From: Nitrospira sp.
GTDB taxonomy: Bacteria; Nitrospirota; Nitrospiria; Nitrospirales; Nitrospiraceae
Length of the DNA stretch: 64,000 nt
NCBI GenBank assembly: GCA_030123605.1
Contig: CP126123.1
Location: 3,437,237-3,501,236 of the forward strand
Reading direction: 5' to 3'
Part shown: piece after piece, positions 6,291 to 20,104 of the stretch
Numbering within the stretch: position 1 is the stretch's first letter
How the letters are laid out: every line of letters begins with the position of its first letter
Notes under the pieces: generated by a model
The model's database searches: none
What the model was told of the DNA's origin: nothing
What the model saw: only the letters and a program-made list of their open reading frames with translations
Position numbers and translations under genes: made by a program

Positions 6291-7523
6291 TCACACCAGA
6301 ATCGGGGGCTGGTTGCCCGGTGGAACAGGCTGTTTCCGAGCGGCAGAAGAGAAGGTGATGCCGATGATCGTGAGGACGCAGAACAGGGCTCCCGCATAGA
6401 ATGTGAATGGAGCGCCGAGGCTATCCCATACCAATCCGGCCAAGACACTGGCGAGAAGCATGGCGAGCCCCGAGACGAGGTTGAAGCAGCCGTATGCGGT
6501 TCCTCGCAGGTCGGCCGGTGTCGTATCCGCCACCATGGTGGCCAGCAGACCTTGCGTCATCCCCATGTGAATGCCCCAGAGGGCGACACCTCCCAGCACC
6601 GTGCTCCAGCGATCGTCCGAGGCTAAAACCAGATCCGCCGCAATCAACACCACCAGGCCGAGCGTGAGAAGCTTCCTGTGGCTCATGCGATCGGAAAGCC
6701 TGCCGAACGGATAGGCCGAAGCCGCGTAGACCAGGTTCATCGCGACCATGACGAGGGGAATCAGGGCGACAGGGATTCCGCCCTGCTGCGCGCGGAGGAC
6801 AAGGAAGGCTTCGCTGAATCGAGCCAGCGTGAAGACGGCTCCGACTCCCACCACCCACCAATAGGCAGATCCTAAGCTGGTAAAATTGCCAAGGCTGAGG
6901 GGGTTCCTTCTCCGATCGGCTTGCCGGAGCGCAGGTTCCCGTATCCCGACCAGCAGGAGTGCCACGGCCATTATGCCCGGTATGACGGCCACCCAGAAGA
7001 CCGCCCGAAAATCATCGGCCCAGAGCAGCATTAACCCCACTGCGAGCAGGGGACCGAGAAAGGCTCCCACCGTATCGAGCGATTGCCGCAAACCGAATGC
7101 TGCGCCACGGAGCTGCGGTGGCGCGATGTCCGCCACCAACGCATCGCGCGGCGCGCCTCGCACACCCTTGCCCACTCGATCCAACAGGCGGGCGGTCAGC
7201 AGGGTGCCGATATCCGGAGCCACCGCGAAGAGGGGTTTGGTCAGGGCTCCCAAGGCGTAACCGAACAAAGCCAATCCCTTCCGTCTGCCGAGATAGTCGC
7301 TCAAGGTTCCTGAAAAGACCTTGACCACGAGCGCGAGGGACTCGGCCAGCCCTTCCACGATGCCGACTGCGATCGTACCGGCGCCGAGGGTCGTGACCAT
7401 GAACAGGGGCAGCAGGCTGTGGATCATTTCCGACGAGATGTCCATCAGCAGACTGACAAAGCCCAGCACCCAGATGCCGGACGGCATCTGGCGAAGGGAA
7501 CTGTTTGGCTGCAGATTTGGCAT
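6291..7523 (-). CDS. MFS transporter
   Basis: About 12 hydrophobic segments; MFS loop motifs GTLSDYLGRRK and GRLSDRMSHRK. Confidence 0.9.
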   Translation of the reverse strand: MPNLQPNSSLRQMPSGIWVLGFVSLLMDISSEMIHSLLPLFMVTTLGAGTIAVGIVEGLAESLALVVKVFSGTLSDYLGRRKGLALFGYALGALTKPLFAVAPDIGTLLTARLLDRVGKGVRGAPRDALVADIAPPQLRGAAFGLRQSLDTVGAFLGPLLAVGLMLLWADDFRAVFWVAVIPGIMAVALLLVGIREPALRQADRRRNPLSLGNFTSLGSAYWWVVGVGAVFTLARFSEAFLVLRAQQGGIPVALIPLVMVAMNLVYAASAYPFGRLSDRMSHRKLLTLGLVVLIAADLVLASDDRWSTVLGGVALWGIHMGMTQGLLATMVADTTPADLRGTAYGCFNLVSGLAMLLASVLAGLVWDSLGAPFTFYAGALFCVLTIIGITFSSAARKQPVPPGNQPPILV

Positions 7524-14749: not shown

Positions 14750-15046
14750 TTACCCGACGTGGATCTCGGTGGGGTGGGCGAAGATCCTCCGCGGGCCGCC
14801 GCGCCGGACCCGACAACGGACCTGCGCTCCGGCAGACAGCCCCGCCTTCTTCGCCGACTCATTCGCCATGTACACCCGTACGACCGTTCCCGCCGCGTCC
14901 GCGAGCAGGTTAGCAAATCCTACCACTGCTTGGGCGCGGCGCACGTGAATCTCCACGACGACGTGCTGAGCCACGTCCGCCGCCGGCGAGACCGACTGCA
15001 CCAACCCCTCCAGGTCCGTCCAATTTTCGATGATCGAGACTGCCAT
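14750..15046 (-). CDS. Small hypothetical protein (possible beta-barrel/OB-like), last gene of the M6/ATP-grasp operon
   Basis: Beta-rich 98-aa ORF co-directional with and overlapping the ATP-grasp gene; alternative start 15055. Confidence 0.55.
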   Translation of the reverse strand: MAVSIIENWTDLEGLVQSVSPAADVAQHVVVEIHVRRAQAVVGFANLLADAAGTVVRVYMANESAKKAGLSAGAQVRCRVRRGGPRRIFAHPTEIHVG

Positions 15047-15986
15047 GGTGCTCATTGTAGGGAGTGAGGAGGTAATCCACAATGGCTTCGGCGATCGGTT
15101 GGCCCGTCTGTTCTTGATAGAAACTGTATGCGGGGGAAGGGTTCACCTCGAAACAATAATAGGCGCCGTCGGGAGTCCGTTTGAGATCGATGCCACAGAG
15201 GGGGAGGTTCAACTCCTGCGAGAGGCGGAGGCAACGAGCGGCGATGTCGTTCGGCAACTCGATCGGCCTCATGGTCAGGTCCTGGCCGTCCCGCGCCGCA
15301 TAACGATAGTCGGTGGCACCGGTCACGATCTCCGTGGCGAACAGGCGCGTTCCGGCCGTGTGCACCCGCAGGTTGACGCCTGGCACGAAGGCCTGGAATT
15401 GAGTGGGAAGGTGCCGCAGCCTCTGCAACCCCCGCCGATCGTTCGGATTGAACTCGCGCACGATGGAGCGAATCGAGCTGATGCTCTTGAAAATGACCCG
15501 GCCGTGCTTCCGGTGAAACGCCACCGCTTCATCGAGGTCGTTCGTCACCAACGTGGTCGGAATCTCGAATCCGCAGCGGTTGATCAACCGGCATTGATAG
15601 GGTTTCGACATGTTGGACGCCATCGCTCCGGGACGGTTGAGCACGCGACAGTCCGCCAGTTCCAGCCATTGACAGAACGCTTCGTGAAAGACCCGCGAAC
15701 GTTCGACTGCCGCCTGGTCCGGGGTGCGATGTCGGAATGTCCGGTTTTCCGGAAGCACGTCGCTGTCGATCATCCGGGAGTAGATCCCTTGAATATCCGA
15801 CAGGCGATAGGTCGCATCACCGATGGCCAACGTGCCGTCGAAGCCCTCTTTGGTGGCGGTCAATCGCAGGCCGAGGTAGTGCGACTCCCGCTGGTTGAGT
15901 AACAGAAACGGCAGCCCGCGTTTCTCCGCCGCCTCGATCGCGAGCCGGAGAGGCTCTTCCGATGGGACACCGCAGAACAGGATCAT
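14910..15986 (-). CDS. RimK/graspetide-synthetase-like ATP-grasp ligase
   Basis: SNMSKPYQ, VIFKSIS, FQAFVPG, DYR, GIDLK, YCFEVNPSP ATP-grasp motifs; ATG at 15986 overlaps the upstream stop (ATGA). The last ~45 aa look like read-through. Confidence 0.88.
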   Translation of the reverse strand: MILFCGVPSEEPLRLAIEAAEKRGLPFLLLNQRESHYLGLRLTATKEGFDGTLAIGDATYRLSDIQGIYSRMIDSDVLPENRTFRHRTPDQAAVERSRVFHEAFCQWLELADCRVLNRPGAMASNMSKPYQCRLINRCGFEIPTTLVTNDLDEAVAFHRKHGRVIFKSISSIRSIVREFNPNDRRGLQRLRHLPTQFQAFVPGVNLRVHTAGTRLFATEIVTGATDYRYAARDGQDLTMRPIELPNDIAARCLRLSQELNLPLCGIDLKRTPDGAYYCFEVNPSPAYSFYQEQTGQPIAEAIVDYLLTPYNEHHGSLDHRKLDGPGGVGAVGLAGGGRGSARRRGDSRAPRPSSGRIC

Positions 15987-16824: not shown

Positions 16825-18618
16825 TCAGCCCTCCCGCATCTTACTGTCGTAGAGCCGCTTGGCTTCCGCCGCGCCTTCCCGCATGCGTGCCTGCATTTCC
16901 TCGCAGTCGGATTCCGAGGCCAGCGCGCTTTCCCGCAGATCCGGGCGCAGGTCGCCCGTGATGTAGGGCTCGATGCTCTGCATCATGGATTCGAGGCGGG
17001 AGACGCGGTCCTCCAGGTCCGGTTCGGCCCCCGCCGTCCTCAACCCACCGGGAGGGCGTCCCTCGACGAGGTCCTTGTCCTTTTCCTTGATCTCCTTGAA
17101 GTCTTTCTCCTTCTCCTTAAGGATTTCCTTTCGTTCCTTGATCTCTTTTTCTTTGATCTCCTTGAACCCCTCTTTCCGGTCCTTCTCCTTGATGAACTCC
17201 TTGCGTTCCTTCTCCTTGATGAATTCCTTCCGTTCCTTGATCTCTTTGATCTTGCACTTGACGGCCAGTCGCGCCGTCATCGTGGCTCCGGACGAACCGA
17301 TATTGGTGATAGAGACGCAGGTGTTCACGTTGCCGTAGGACTTCGAATCCGGGTTGGAGGTGGCGTTGAAGGTCACGTTGTTGGCCGATCCGGGATAGGG
17401 ATCGCCGGCATCGCCGCGGTTGGCGCCGGTCGTGAGGTGCTTCAATCCGTCCGCCTGCATCAATGCAACCTGCGGATGGTTCTCATTCGAGTTGCCGCCG
17501 ACGGCTTCATCGACGTGGTAGACCAGCAGGCCCGGACCTGGGAGCATCTTGTCATAGGCCGTCTTTTGGCGATTCTCGACGAGAAAGTACTCATTGCCCG
17601 GCGCCCCGTCCTTCCAGAGCCGGTAGACGGCATGCCCGGTTTTGACGTCGGTGATCGAGACGGTTTGATTGGTCGTTTGGTTCACCACGGACACCCAGCC
17701 CTGGTTGACCTTGCACCAGGCGGAGGGGTGCGCCGGGATGTCGCCGCCGCCGTTCCAGCTGCCGCCCGCCATGAGGCACCAGTTGCCCAGGCCCTCGGAC
17801 GAGTAGTCGGTGTCGTAGAGGTCGGGCCATCCGAAGATCAGGTGCCCGAGTTCGTGGCAACAGACCCCGATCTTGCAGTCTTCCGGCACCGTCAGGTAGG
17901 CATAGATCTTCGTTCCGTCGGCGTTGTACGCGCCGCCGGACAGGACCCACTTGTGAGACCAGATATCGTTGACGTTCCCCGTTTGCTCCGCGCCCCCGCC
18001 GGCATGCAGCACCACGAAGGCATCCACGAACCCGTTGCCGTCGTTGTCGTATTGCGCGAAGTTGACGGTGGGGTTGGAGGCGTCGGCGGCATCCTTCGCC
18101 ATGGTGCGGGCGTTGGGCTCGACGTTGCCCGTGCCGGAGTCGCCGTGCGCATATTCGCTGAGCTTCTTGGGCATGCGGAAAGGCCCGACGACCTCGCCGA
18201 CCATATCGATCAGGCCGTGCGTGACTTCTTTGTAGTAGTCACGCACGCTGCCGTTCGGCAGGACTCCGGTCGAAAAGAACAGATCTTCGAAATGCTTCTT
18301 CGTCTTGGTCATCGGCTTGTCGGAAAAGTCGACCAGCACGACGATGACGCGGACGGTCCCGCGGAGCGGGGCCCGGTCGAGTGCGCCGTTCCGGACCGTA
18401 CGGGCCGATGTCCCGAGGGGATAATGGTCGCCGGGAAAGATCAACCCGTCGTCCATGCCGACGGGTTTGTTGCGGGCAATACGGAGCATGTTGGAAAACG
18501 CGGTTCTGGTCCTGCCTTTGGCCTTGTCCAGGTCGGCCTTCAGCTTTTTCTCCAAGTCGGGATGGGGAGCCACCAGACAGCGTTCGGAGTAACAGTGCAC
18601 GATCTTCCTCGATTCCAT
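16825..18618 (-). CDS. M6 family (immune inhibitor A-like) metalloprotease with C-terminal Lys/Glu repeat tail
   Basis: VIVVLVDFSD, DNDGNGFVD, IWSHKW, HELGH zinc motif, PDLYD, WCLMAGGSW, EYFLVENRQ; GAGGAGGT RBS before ATG 18618; no signal peptide apparent. Confidence 0.92.
   Translation of the reverse strand: MESRKIVHCYSERCLVAPHPDLEKKLKADLDKAKGRTRTAFSNMLRIARNKPVGMDDGLIFPGDHYPLGTSARTVRNGALDRAPLRGTVRVIVVLVDFSDKPMTKTKKHFEDLFFSTGVLPNGSVRDYYKEVTHGLIDMVGEVVGPFRMPKKLSEYAHGDSGTGNVEPNARTMAKDAADASNPTVNFAQYDNDGNGFVDAFVVLHAGGGAEQTGNVNDIWSHKWVLSGGAYNADGTKIYAYLTVPEDCKIGVCCHELGHLIFGWPDLYDTDYSSEGLGNWCLMAGGSWNGGGDIPAHPSAWCKVNQGWVSVVNQTTNQTVSITDVKTGHAVYRLWKDGAPGNEYFLVENRQKTAYDKMLPGPGLLVYHVDEAVGGNSNENHPQVALMQADGLKHLTTGANRGDAGDPYPGSANNVTFNATSNPDSKSYGNVNTCVSITNIGSSGATMTARLAVKCKIKEIKERKEFIKEKERKEFIKEKDRKEGFKEIKEKEIKERKEILKEKEKDFKEIKEKDKDLVEGRPPGGLRTAGAEPDLEDRVSRLESMMQSIEPYITGDLRPDLRESALASESDCEEMQARMREGAAEAKRLYDSKMREG
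17071..17253 (-). repeat. Coding K-E repeat tract including a 2x27-bp tandem repeat (17181-17234)
   Basis: 61 aa KIKEIKERKEFIKEKERKEFIKEKDRKEGFKEIKEKEIKERKEILKEKEKDFKEIKEKDKD; counted 22 K and 21 E/D. Confidence 0.95.
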
Positions 18619-18937
18619 AGCGACCTCCTCGGTTGGGGGAACCTGTTCGTTCGGCGCATTCGACATACTCGCGACGCAATCCTTTCGAATGCGGTTCGCA
18701 AGCAGAGATCGTCGATTGTCGGGGTGGTGCGGTGACCGATGCATCGCTGAGTGAGCAAGGCGCGTGCCCATATGAGGGAGCAGAGCGCTTCGCTTATTTT
18801 TGAGGATGATAGGATTGGAAGTATTTTTACGAGGCCGAGCCTCTGCACGAAAACTGTATCCAAAAGCATAATCGACGGTATTGAAAGAGATACAGGGGAA
18901 GGAAAGGGTGAGGTGGCCGGCTGACGATCCGGTGAAG

Positions 18938-19156: not shown

Positions 19157-20050
19157 TCACCGAGGGTTGGCGATTTGAAGCAGGCTTCCACCGGCGGCCA
19201 ACCTGGCGAACTGCCGCTTCATGCCGTTGACCTGATCAAGGTACCTCCTGGCGTCGTGGTCGCCGCATCGTTGGTGGGGGAGCAGTCGGAAGCCGTGTGC
19301 GACATAGGCACGGCCCGCTCCGATTCCGCAGAGGTGGATCACGGCGGCGAGATCCTGCTTGTGTTGACGGGCGGGTTTGGCCACAGTCCGTCGCCCGACC
19401 GCGTGTGTCACCGCACGGTCGAGTAGGGCCGCCGTCAACTCGATGGCATGACTCGGCAGGACTCGGCTGTAGAGGCTGTTGAACCAACAGGAGTTCACGT
19501 CGTGCCAAGGGCCGTCCCGGACCACCCGGTGATCATGGATGCAGTAGCGCTTGGCTTCTTGGAACGTTCCGTCGGTCATCTGATACATGCCGGCCGCGCT
19601 CGAGGCCGGTCGGTACCACTCCAAGGGATTCCAGCTCAGATGCCATCGCCAGTAGGTCCGCGCCACCGGGTTGCCCCCTCCCTCGACCTGGGCCAGCGCA
19701 GCCAACAACTCGGGCGTGATGACGGCGGTCGCATGCTCGCGGAACAGAGGGCCGTATTCCCGCCATGTTTCAAACGGGCGTTTGTCGAGTGTGTTATCCA
19801 GCGGGAAAAACACTTCCGTCGGTTTGTGGATCGCGTGGTATGCCCAGTTGATGCCGGCACCCAGCAACAGGAGGGTGGTCGCGCCGACCAACAGCCGCAA
19901 CCAGAACGGCAAGGCCCGCAAGGCGACCCACATCGCCTTGAGTCCATGCAGCCAGGATCGCGCGCGCCTGCGGACGGCTGTGAGTGAGATCCGACGGCGG
20001 TGTTTTGTGCGGAGGACTCCGGCCGACCGTACATGGGAGCGGGAGGACAT
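19157..20050 (-). CDS. Lytic transglycosylase (SLT-like) domain protein with N-terminal membrane anchor
   Basis: LAALAQVEGGGNP (catalytic Glu) and SAAGMYQMT motif; TM helix LLVGATTLLLLGAGI. Confidence 0.75.
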   Translation of the reverse strand: MSSRSHVRSAGVLRTKHRRRISLTAVRRRARSWLHGLKAMWVALRALPFWLRLLVGATTLLLLGAGINWAYHAIHKPTEVFFPLDNTLDKRPFETWREYGPLFREHATAVITPELLAALAQVEGGGNPVARTYWRWHLSWNPLEWYRPASSAAGMYQMTDGTFQEAKRYCIHDHRVVRDGPWHDVNSCWFNSLYSRVLPSHAIELTAALLDRAVTHAVGRRTVAKPARQHKQDLAAVIHLCGIGAGRAYVAHGFRLLPHQRCGDHDARRYLDQVNGMKRQFARLAAGGSLLQIANPR

Positions 20051-20104
20051 GACCTCACTATAACCCAAAAAGGAATAGGTGGCGGTTGGATGCGCTCGAT
20101 CGAT

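Follow-up and report, generated by a model that had tools for sequence, protein, structure and literature searches.

Why should a metalloprotease end in a long tail of lysine and glutamate residues, and why should that tail be followed by genes for a ligase of the graspetide type and a degenerate relative of it? This question is raised by a locus of Nitrospira sp. (GenBank assembly GCA_030123605.1, contig CP126123.1), from which a stretch of 64,000 nucleotides was analysed (positions 3,437,237 to 3,501,236 of the forward strand), referred to here as the window. Its minus strand encodes an M6 (InhA-like) metalloprotease in which the last 144 residues (aa 505-648 of a 648-codon open reading frame, ORF) form a tail, or cassette, made up of a Lys/Glu tract, a Gly/Pro linker, a short helix and the motif IEPYITGDLRPDL. 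Three tightly packed genes follow downstream on the same strand, namely grB, grA and a small gene for what we call the IENW protein. An initial annotation, made from the DNA letters, had suggested that the final motif may be a portable recognition sequence, of leader or follower type, for ATP-grasp proteins encoded nearby. Here we show that the tail is carried by unrelated proteins and is tied genetically to the ligase pair, and we propose, with a probability of roughly 55% for the mechanism as a whole, that it serves as a portable substrate and docking module for grA/grB.

A portable tail and its genetic link to grB and grA

The link between tail and ligases was approached from both directions. 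A scan of a genome collection based on grA fetched 80 loci, from Nitrospirota, Acidobacteriota, Chloroflexota, Gemmatimonadota, Pseudomonadota, Actinomycetota, Planctomycetota, Verrucomicrobiota and methanogenic archaea, and the tail was then sought in their ORFs by an iterated search with a 77-aa query. It was found in 51 of the 80, always on the ORF directly upstream of grB and then grA, and most of the other loci run into a contig end or come from a distant Nitrospira clade whose locus is of another kind. In the reverse scan a degenerate DNA pattern for FIxxxLRPDLxxGAL alone brought in 80 further loci, 79 of which were confirmed to encode the tail by a hidden Markov model (HMM), and 78 of these 79 have grB, grA or both downstream on the same strand; in the sole motif locus that has no ATP-grasp neighbour, 172 bp of contig remain downstream. 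These scans show a near-obligate genetic link of the tail to grB and grA, and very probably the tail is the functional partner of the ligase pair. The only genes universal across the loci are those for the cassette protein, grB and grA, and, as the IENW gene is confined to M6-type loci, the cassette protein is the only candidate substrate present in every locus. The 4.3-Mb genome from which the window comes holds exactly one copy of the tail, and therefore no hidden set of substrates elsewhere.

Two Actinomycetota loci fetched with grA have a divergent tail of the form FIxxxERPxVGExAL, which the search missed, behind Kelch-type or unknown domains. In these loci (L070, 3852-5096, and L055, 2673-4802) FIxxxERP(P/A)VGExAL takes the place of LRPDL, and the variant tails, both of them passed over by the tail HMM, follow K/D/T or K/E/N repeats on unknown and Kelch/galactose-oxidase-like domains. 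The distant clade of Nitrospira ATP-grasp proteins (L056-L077, about 40% identical to grA) was set aside as a different system, with an ABC transporter and no cassette; L056, L057, L069 and others of this clade encode a longer grB-like paralogue, the ABC transporter and a 391-aa protein, with no K/E cassette among them, and they may represent another published graspetide group.

Removal of duplicates left 110 non-identical cassette proteins, which range from 130 to 800 aa and are often full enzymes. By Pfam, 26 carry Peptidase_M6, 15 Peptidase_S8 and about nine a Nal1/trypsin-like serine protease domain, and there are single carriers with Astacin, TIG, B_lectin and Kelch/galactose-oxidase-like domains (the last with a divergent tail). 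About half are short proteins of 130-360 aa that consist of K/E repeats and the tail, with no enzyme domain. The tail is thus a portable module on unrelated proteins, in which the N-terminal part varies and the ATP-grasp neighbours are near-constant. The statement in the initial annotation that HFIxxELRPDL motifs follow K/E repeats on unrelated proteins was a sound one, since many such homologues (HFIxxxLRPDL) were found. A single-sequence phmmer search with the 77-aa tail against 1.8 billion representative sequences gave 35 hits and added little beyond the genome loci; the 13 that were read are fragments of M6 proteins or K/E-repeat proteins, together with one eukaryotic coiled-coil false positive (P0019).

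Within the tail the FI motif is the most conserved part. Residues I604, R609 and P610 are invariant in the 110 proteins, and R589, E594, F603, L608, D611, L612, G615, A616, L617 and E620 are kept in at least 90% of them. Neither the tail nor the IENW protein is covered by a model in Pfam, NCBIfam or PADLOC, and a literature search for LRPDL returned nothing relevant.

The motif is preceded by a tract rich in lysine and acidic residues. Under a strict density criterion such a tract lies within 120 aa upstream of the motif in 100 of 108 proteins, with a median length of 75 aa and a median gap of 39 aa between tract and motif, and the eight proteins that fall below the criterion have looser Lys-acid dyad repeats of the DK/EK kind (e.g. 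FDKN-FDKN and SDKI-SDKI). In the Nitrospira protein the tract, KIKE...KDKDL, contains 22 Lys, and Glu or Asp stands directly after 21 of them, as the initial annotation had counted (binomial p = 2e-9); in 200,000 shuffles of the tract the number of such pairs never rose above 16. The 27-nt units encoding RKEFIKEKE (aa 514-522) and RKEFIKEKD (aa 523-531) are identical at 24 of 27 positions, and Tandem Repeats Finder reports a period of 27 at 17157-17238 with 3.0 copies and 83% matches, which agrees with the tandem duplication noted earlier; GRPPGG, LEDRVSRLESMMQS and IEPYITGDLRPDLRESAL are likewise all present in the tail as given there. For the further claim of a tract in continuing expansion no support was found. 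In the closest orthologue, L001 from another Nitrospira, the tract is of nearly equal length and 56% identical, with insertions and deletions, which makes it the fastest-evolving part of a protein whose catalytic domain and motif are 91% and 77% identical; on this sequence comparison the tract shows fast turnover and not net growth.

The two ligase-like proteins differ in their predicted activity. For grA the best NCBIfam match is TIGR04187 (6e-38), followed by weaker matches to the MvdC and MvdD models and weak ones to RimK (4e-11), MptN and LysX. Among solved structures PsnB is the closest (7drm, 2e-20), followed by MdnC, MdnB, CdnC and AMdnB. The catalytic motifs of the side-chain macrocyclase family are intact, from which grA is predicted to be an active graspetide-type ligase. 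The second protein, grB, is found in nearly all cassette loci; it has no match in Pfam, NCBIfam or PADLOC and no sequence relative in the PDB, and is related to grA over its full length when the two family profiles are aligned with hhalign (97% probability, E 9e-11). Missing from it are the nucleotide-binding Lys, the DYRY loop and the E-x-N metal site, so that neither a nucleotide nor a metal site is left and grB is predicted to be a dead ATP-grasp paralogue.

If the tail is to be a substrate of an ATP-dependent ligase, the compartment of its carrier matters. InhA itself is a secreted protein with an N-terminal signal peptide. A signal-peptide-like hydrophobic N-terminus was seen neither in the window protease nor in any of the 55 long cassette proteins (0/55) by a crude hydropathy scan, which is not a dedicated predictor, and these proteins would therefore be cytoplasmic and within reach of such a ligase. 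One metagenomic K/E-repeat protein that bears the tail, P0006, has an N-terminus resembling a signal peptide (MTRVPLTVLLPLLLLLPGVCAAQ), unlike the genome-derived members that were checked.

In a FastTree phylogeny of grA the M6-type loci form one clade (support 99) that mixes nine phyla, archaea included, and its sister clade holds the S8-type, S1-type and stand-alone loci. As a single well-supported clade spans so many phyla, the M6 operon type probably arose once and then moved horizontally.

The operon in the window is a member of an orphan group that has been described twice, as branch 8 (Makarova et al. 2022, Biol Direct 17:7, PMC8939145) and as group 32 (Carter et al. 2026, ACS Chem Biol, PMC13097080), since it is of the same locus type and its IENW protein is homologous to a precursor predicted for group 32. 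Branch 8 loci were reported to encode several unrelated peptidase families and a truncated, inactive ATP-grasp protein, with no precursor predicted, and in group 32 the M6 domain TIGR03296 was found in 22% of clusters. The window operon shares with both a graspetide-family ATP-grasp, an inactive paralogue and a setting of unrelated peptidases that include M6. It differs in the reading of the parts, since in the present loci the ligase pair is accompanied universally by the tail, and the IENW protein is an accessory restricted to the M6 type. The searchable text and supplements of the two surveys contain no mention of the K/E-repeat and LRPDL tail, and the tail as substrate module of this orphan group is new relative to the literature searched.

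Candidate docking and cross-linking of the tail

An AlphaFold2 model of the cassette (aa 495-648, from an alignment of 39 sequences) is an extended, non-globular chain, with a mean predicted local distance difference test score (pLDDT) of 77 and a predicted template modelling score (pTM) of 0.27. The K/E tract is modelled as one long helix (aa 499-571, pLDDT 71-91), the Gly/Pro linker that follows (aa 572-585) has no secondary structure, aa 586-600 form a short helix, and the conserved motif (aa 601-620) has almost no regular secondary structure and leads into a C-terminal helix. From these parts we infer a docking role for the motif, a role for the Lys/Glu tract as the modified site, and isopeptide chemistry between its side chains. 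Of the earlier suggestion of a portable recognition sequence, portability and the ATP-grasp link are observed, and its recognition or follower part belongs with these proposals.

In the mechanism that we favour, the short helix and the extended (H/P)FIxxxLRPDLxxGALxxE segment would dock the grA/grB pair, much as a leader does but from the C-terminal side, which would make it a follower. The flexible Gly/Pro linker would let the upstream Lys/Glu tract reach the active site, where grA would activate Glu/Asp side-chain carboxylates with ATP, and neighbouring Lys amines would attack to give repeated isopeptide (omega-amide) links, within one chain or between chains. The cross-linked tract would stay joined to the enzyme domain upstream of it, which here would be that of a cytoplasmically made M6 protease.

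The docking role is suggested by four features of the motif, namely that it is the most conserved part of the tail, that it is modelled as extended, that it resembles a known leader motif and that engineered followers work. The leader of PsnA2 contains the motif LFIEDL, which binds PsnB and in which the essential Phe sits in a hydrophobic pocket of the enzyme. The F-I and D-L of this motif resemble the F-I-x-x-(D/E/N)-L of the tail, whose F and I vary little or not at all; PsnB is also the closest solved structure to grA, and PsnA2 has more than one core. Plesiocin differs in being a small peptide made by a single enzyme, with Thr-Glu esters in TTxxxxEE cores that come after the leader, whereas the tract of the tail is almost devoid of Ser and Thr. 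More generally, the (P/H)-F-I-x-x-x-L of the tail resembles both LFIEDL and the graspetide leader signature Phhx(1,2)h (PMC8939145), with the spacing off by one or two residues. A C-terminal recognition sequence is tolerated by ThfB, which remains active when a graspetide leader is moved to the C-terminus and which cyclises and cross-links whole proteins (PMC13003496, PMC12291112); those follower substrates, from the Link laboratory, are man-made, while the tail would be a natural one.

For the tract as target the argument comes from its lactam-forming composition, its presence throughout the family, the precedent of corallotide and the cyclisation of whole proteins by ThfB. Across 79 tracts (5,072 residues) Lys makes up 31%, Glu 25%, Asp 6%, Ile 8%, Pro 4%, and Ser and Thr about 1% each, so that the tract consists almost wholly of lactam-forming residues (K 31%, E+D 31%). 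The corallotide precursor CorA is a 22-kDa protein with five KxxxD Lys-Asp isopeptide rings, and its TIGR04187-type ligase needs a partner protein (PMC13097080). The CorA/CorB/CorC system (group 15) thus resembles the present one in its large precursor, its repeated Lys-acid pairs, its TIGR04187-type ATP-grasp and its partner protein. CorA has, however, an N-terminal recognition domain and five fixed KxxxD units, whereas the motif here lies C-terminal to a variable K/E tract; the partner there is an oxygenase and here a dead ATP-grasp paralogue, the carrier here is often a full enzyme, and the chemistry proposed here is inferred.

A tract so rich in Lys and Glu also invites comparison with single alpha-helix (ER/K) domains, which it resembles in composition and in the long isolated helix of the AlphaFold2 model. 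Such domains typically pair an acid at position i with a Lys at i+4. In the 79 tracts acids are enriched at +1 from Lys (z 22), -1 (z 15), +4 (z 12.5), +5 and +8 and are depleted at +3 and +6; at -4, the ER/K arrangement, they are not enriched (0.276 against 0.293 expected), and it is the reverse Lys(i)-acid(i+4) spacing that stands out. The Pro content of the tracts and their tie to a ligase pair are further differences from ER/K domains.

Several observations weigh against the cross-linking proposal. The match of grA to known maturases is well under every curated cut-off (130.8 against 350 bits for TIGR04187, 87.6 against 425 for TIGR04185 and 79.5 against 475 for TIGR04184), and it belongs to a separate subfamily. 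The carriers, at 130-800 aa and with the motif C-terminal to the K/E tract, are not the short leader-core precursors expected of graspetides. To our knowledge all natural graspetides described have their recognition sequence N-terminal to the core, whereas the proposed core lies upstream of the motif; we also know of no graspetide core in which the ring-forming positions are not strictly conserved, and the Lys/acid spacing of the tracts varies between proteins. The canonical core position, downstream of the motif, is occupied by conserved D611 and E620, often by D622, and by a class-specific K...D. A plain long helix, as modelled, could serve unmodified as a rigid charged spacer. Finally, the proposal gives no account of the presence of the module on proteases in particular, which here come from four unrelated families.

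Some of these points find their place in the rival that survives best, in which the canonical order is kept. The helix and FI motif would then be a leader, the core would lie downstream in the ALxxExD patch and a C-terminal K...D (AKRLYDSK in the Nitrospira protein), and the tract would be a charged spacer helix, as its plain helical model allows. Every known graspetide has its leader before its core, the acids D611, E620 and often D622 are conserved, ALKxExD is the form of the patch in 39 of 54 stand-alone proteins and gives a K-x-x-x-D spacing like that of the corallotide ring, and in 23 of 25 M6-type proteins a K...D follows the motif, as a rule within an (A/P)KRxxD(S/T) ending. The patch nevertheless has no nucleophile common to the classes, as the corresponding position in M6, S8 and S1-type proteins is A, S, Y, T, R, N or G. 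The C-terminal segments are class-dependent, the M6-type ending in (A/P)KRxxD(S/T)(K/P) and the S8-type in KDxKDxE(K/N)L, and are absent from some proteins (e.g. L050 and L051). The canonical order would also leave unexplained the Lys-acid dyad tract found before the motif in virtually all members (100 of 108 under the strict criterion), and on balance we regard it as unlikely.

The same strict presence of Lys bears on the idea that the ligase adds free amino acids in the manner of RimK or a tubulin glutamylase, placing glutamate or another residue on Glu/Asp side chains or on the C-terminus of the tail. The tail is acid-rich and grA has its weak matches to RimK, MptN and LysX, yet its stronger matches (TIGR04187, MvdC, MvdD and PsnB) are all to side-chain macrocyclases, and amino-acid addition would give no account of why Lys is conserved in the tract as strictly as the acids. 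Nor is the C-terminal residue of the tail conserved, varying as it does across the family, on which ground RimK-type C-terminal glutamylation was rejected; the wider idea seems to us improbable.

The extended rod with its linker and helices could instead be read as a device for assembly, with no covalent change at all, by which a charged rod with a coiled coil and a peptide motif would recruit the enzyme domain to a grA/grB scaffold while the ligase acts elsewhere, and a pseudo-enzyme such as grB could well act as a scaffold. We give little credence to such tethering, because the loci hold no other conserved candidate substrate and because recruitment would have no object in the stand-alone K/E proteins, which are without an enzyme domain but whose loci still encode grA with intact catalytic motifs.

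A published reading of branch 8 holds that the neighbouring peptidases cut other cellular proteins and that the resulting peptides are the substrates of the ligase (Makarova et al. 2022, PMC8939145), in keeping with the strong peptidase link and with the authors' failure to find a precursor of up to 150 aa in the neighbourhood of these ligases. This appears very improbable in view of the carriers, since about half of the loci are without any peptidase and still have the cassette, and since the peptidases share no fold or catalytic class and have the tail alone in common, so that the tail and not proteolysis would be the selected feature. Two further candidates for the tail were discarded, a secretion or sorting signal and a targeting peptide for an encapsulin or microcompartment, as hydrophobic segments are absent from the tail and neither shell nor transporter genes occur in the loci.

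The operon in the window and the IENW protein

The features of the operon are collected in Table 1.

Table 1. Features of the protease-ligase operon; positions are those of the window, residues those of the 648-codon ORF
Feature	Position	Strand	Remarks
M6 (InhA-like) metalloprotease gene with C-terminal cassette	16825..18666	minus	orthologue conservation begins at Met36 (MSNAPNEQ...)
M6 catalytic domain, aa 142-419	17515..18348	minus	TIGR03296 and PF05547; 91% identity to L001 orthologue
Lys/Glu tract, aa 505-568	17068..17259	minus	proposed isopeptide cross-link site; 27-nt tandem units at about 17179-17232
Gly/Pro-rich flexible linker LVEGRPPGGLRTAGAEPD, aa 569-585	17017..17067	minus	AlphaFold2 pLDDT <50 at aa 575-581
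Short amphipathic helix LEDRVSRLESMMQSI, aa 586-600	16972..17016	minus	R589 and E594 kept in at least 90% of 110 proteins
Docking-type motif EPYITGDLRPDLRESALASESD (putative), aa 601-622	16906..16971	minus	consensus (H/P)FIxxxLRPDLxxGALxxExD
Class-specific C-terminal helix, aa 623-648, ending AKRLYDSK	16828..16905	minus	AlphaFold2 and family comparison
grB, predicted catalytically dead ATP-grasp paralogue, 278 aa	15983..16819	minus	starts 5 nt past protease stop codon
grA, graspetide-type ATP-grasp ligase (predicted)	14910..15986	minus	start overlaps grB stop codon (ATGA)
Small IENW protein, about 98 aa, starting M..IIENW	14750..15055	minus	accessory gene of M6-type operon only

The protease ORF is open from 18771 (16825..18771), and its start is probably at Met36 (18666), where conservation with L001 sets in. 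The M6 assignment is secure, at 261.9 bits and 1e-77 for TIGR03296 (cut-off 110.8) and 2.5e-25 for Pfam PF05547, and the HELGH zinc site at aa 306-310 is intact. The segment at 16825..17253 that drew attention in the initial annotation corresponds to the last 142 residues and the stop codon. Upstream of the operon (19157-20068, minus strand) lies a gene for a 303-aa protein with a weak match to an SLT lytic transglycosylase (Pfam, 0.0015).

The end of grA in the window departs from that of its orthologues. Its ORF is about 47 codons longer, with an extension rich in Gly, Arg and Ala (14910-15060, minus strand) that runs into the beginning of the IENW gene in a different frame. The TGA stop of L001, in AATTGA (6900-6950), reads AATGAG in the window, a difference of 1 nt that could be either a real loss of the stop codon or an assembly error.

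The IENW gene is found in 19 of 24 M6-class loci and in three more in which the M6 gene is cut by the end of the locus or has no HExGH pattern, and it is absent from all of the remaining 83 loci; it occurs in 16 of the first 80 loci and in 26 over both sets. In a Thioploca locus (L004, 2530-3036) it lies upstream of the M6 gene and not downstream of grA, so the gene order of the operon is not fixed. The AlphaFold2 model of the protein is a barrel of five strands with one helix (pLDDT 94, pTM 0.83), and Foldseek matches it to the OB folds PriB, SSB and the anticodon domain of lysyl-tRNA synthetase and to the NTR domain of complement C3, with modest scores (E 2e-3 or weaker, query-normalised TM up to 0.63). 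Invariance is limited to N8, G53 and G73, and ring-forming residues are not conserved as a pair.

A published prediction for group 32, made with RODEO, takes a Spirosoma protein beginning MQIIENW as the precursor (Carter et al. 2026, PMC13097080, Fig. S9), and the window protein is its homologue over the full length (hhalign 98.5%, E 2e-15). That the IENW protein is the precursor, and that a protease recruited by the tail removes its leader, is the least probable of the explanations considered, since the gene is confined to M6-type loci, the predicted product is a compact OB barrel unlike a disordered precursor, and there are few invariant residues and no ring-forming pair among them. Its confinement to M6-type loci and its compact folded domain indicate that it is probably a folded accessory protein and not the general substrate of group 32.

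The IENW protein has a conserved N-terminus, and among its Foldseek matches the NTR (C345C) domain of complement C3 ranks first. The NTR module is related to the metalloprotease inhibitors known as TIMPs. A role for the IENW protein as a dedicated inhibitor or chaperone of the M6 protease would be pure speculation, the matches being generic OB ones at E 2e-3.

The tail as a possible substrate module on full-size proteins

The preferred reading, that of the tail as substrate and docking module, leads to a more general picture which we put forward tentatively, and in which we have rather less confidence than in the mechanism itself. This would be the first natural graspetide-type system that is directed by a follower and acts on whole proteins, in which a two-subunit ligase reads a C-terminal helix and FIxxxLRPDL tag and installs many Lys-Glu/Asp isopeptide bonds upstream of it, stapling the tract or joining chains into a protease-resistant appendage of proteases and other enzymes, and in which the three-gene unit has spread horizontally through at least ten bacterial phyla and the methanogenic archaea. 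Possible reasons for proteases to carry such a tail are a cross-linked tether that resists self-digestion, the control of latency and covalent assembly.

The group in question had been flagged by two surveys for its unrelated peptidases and the want of a convincing precursor, and these peptidases, together with many proteins that lack an enzyme domain, are now seen to share one unannotated tail, which is probably the substrate that the surveys were missing. If the proposal is true, the engineered follower peptides would have a natural equivalent in the tail, and tag and ligase pair together would offer a short, genetically encoded means of protein stapling or cross-linking. Should the tail be modified in this way, the reach of graspetide chemistry would grow from small secreted peptides to the post-translational modification of full-size enzymes.

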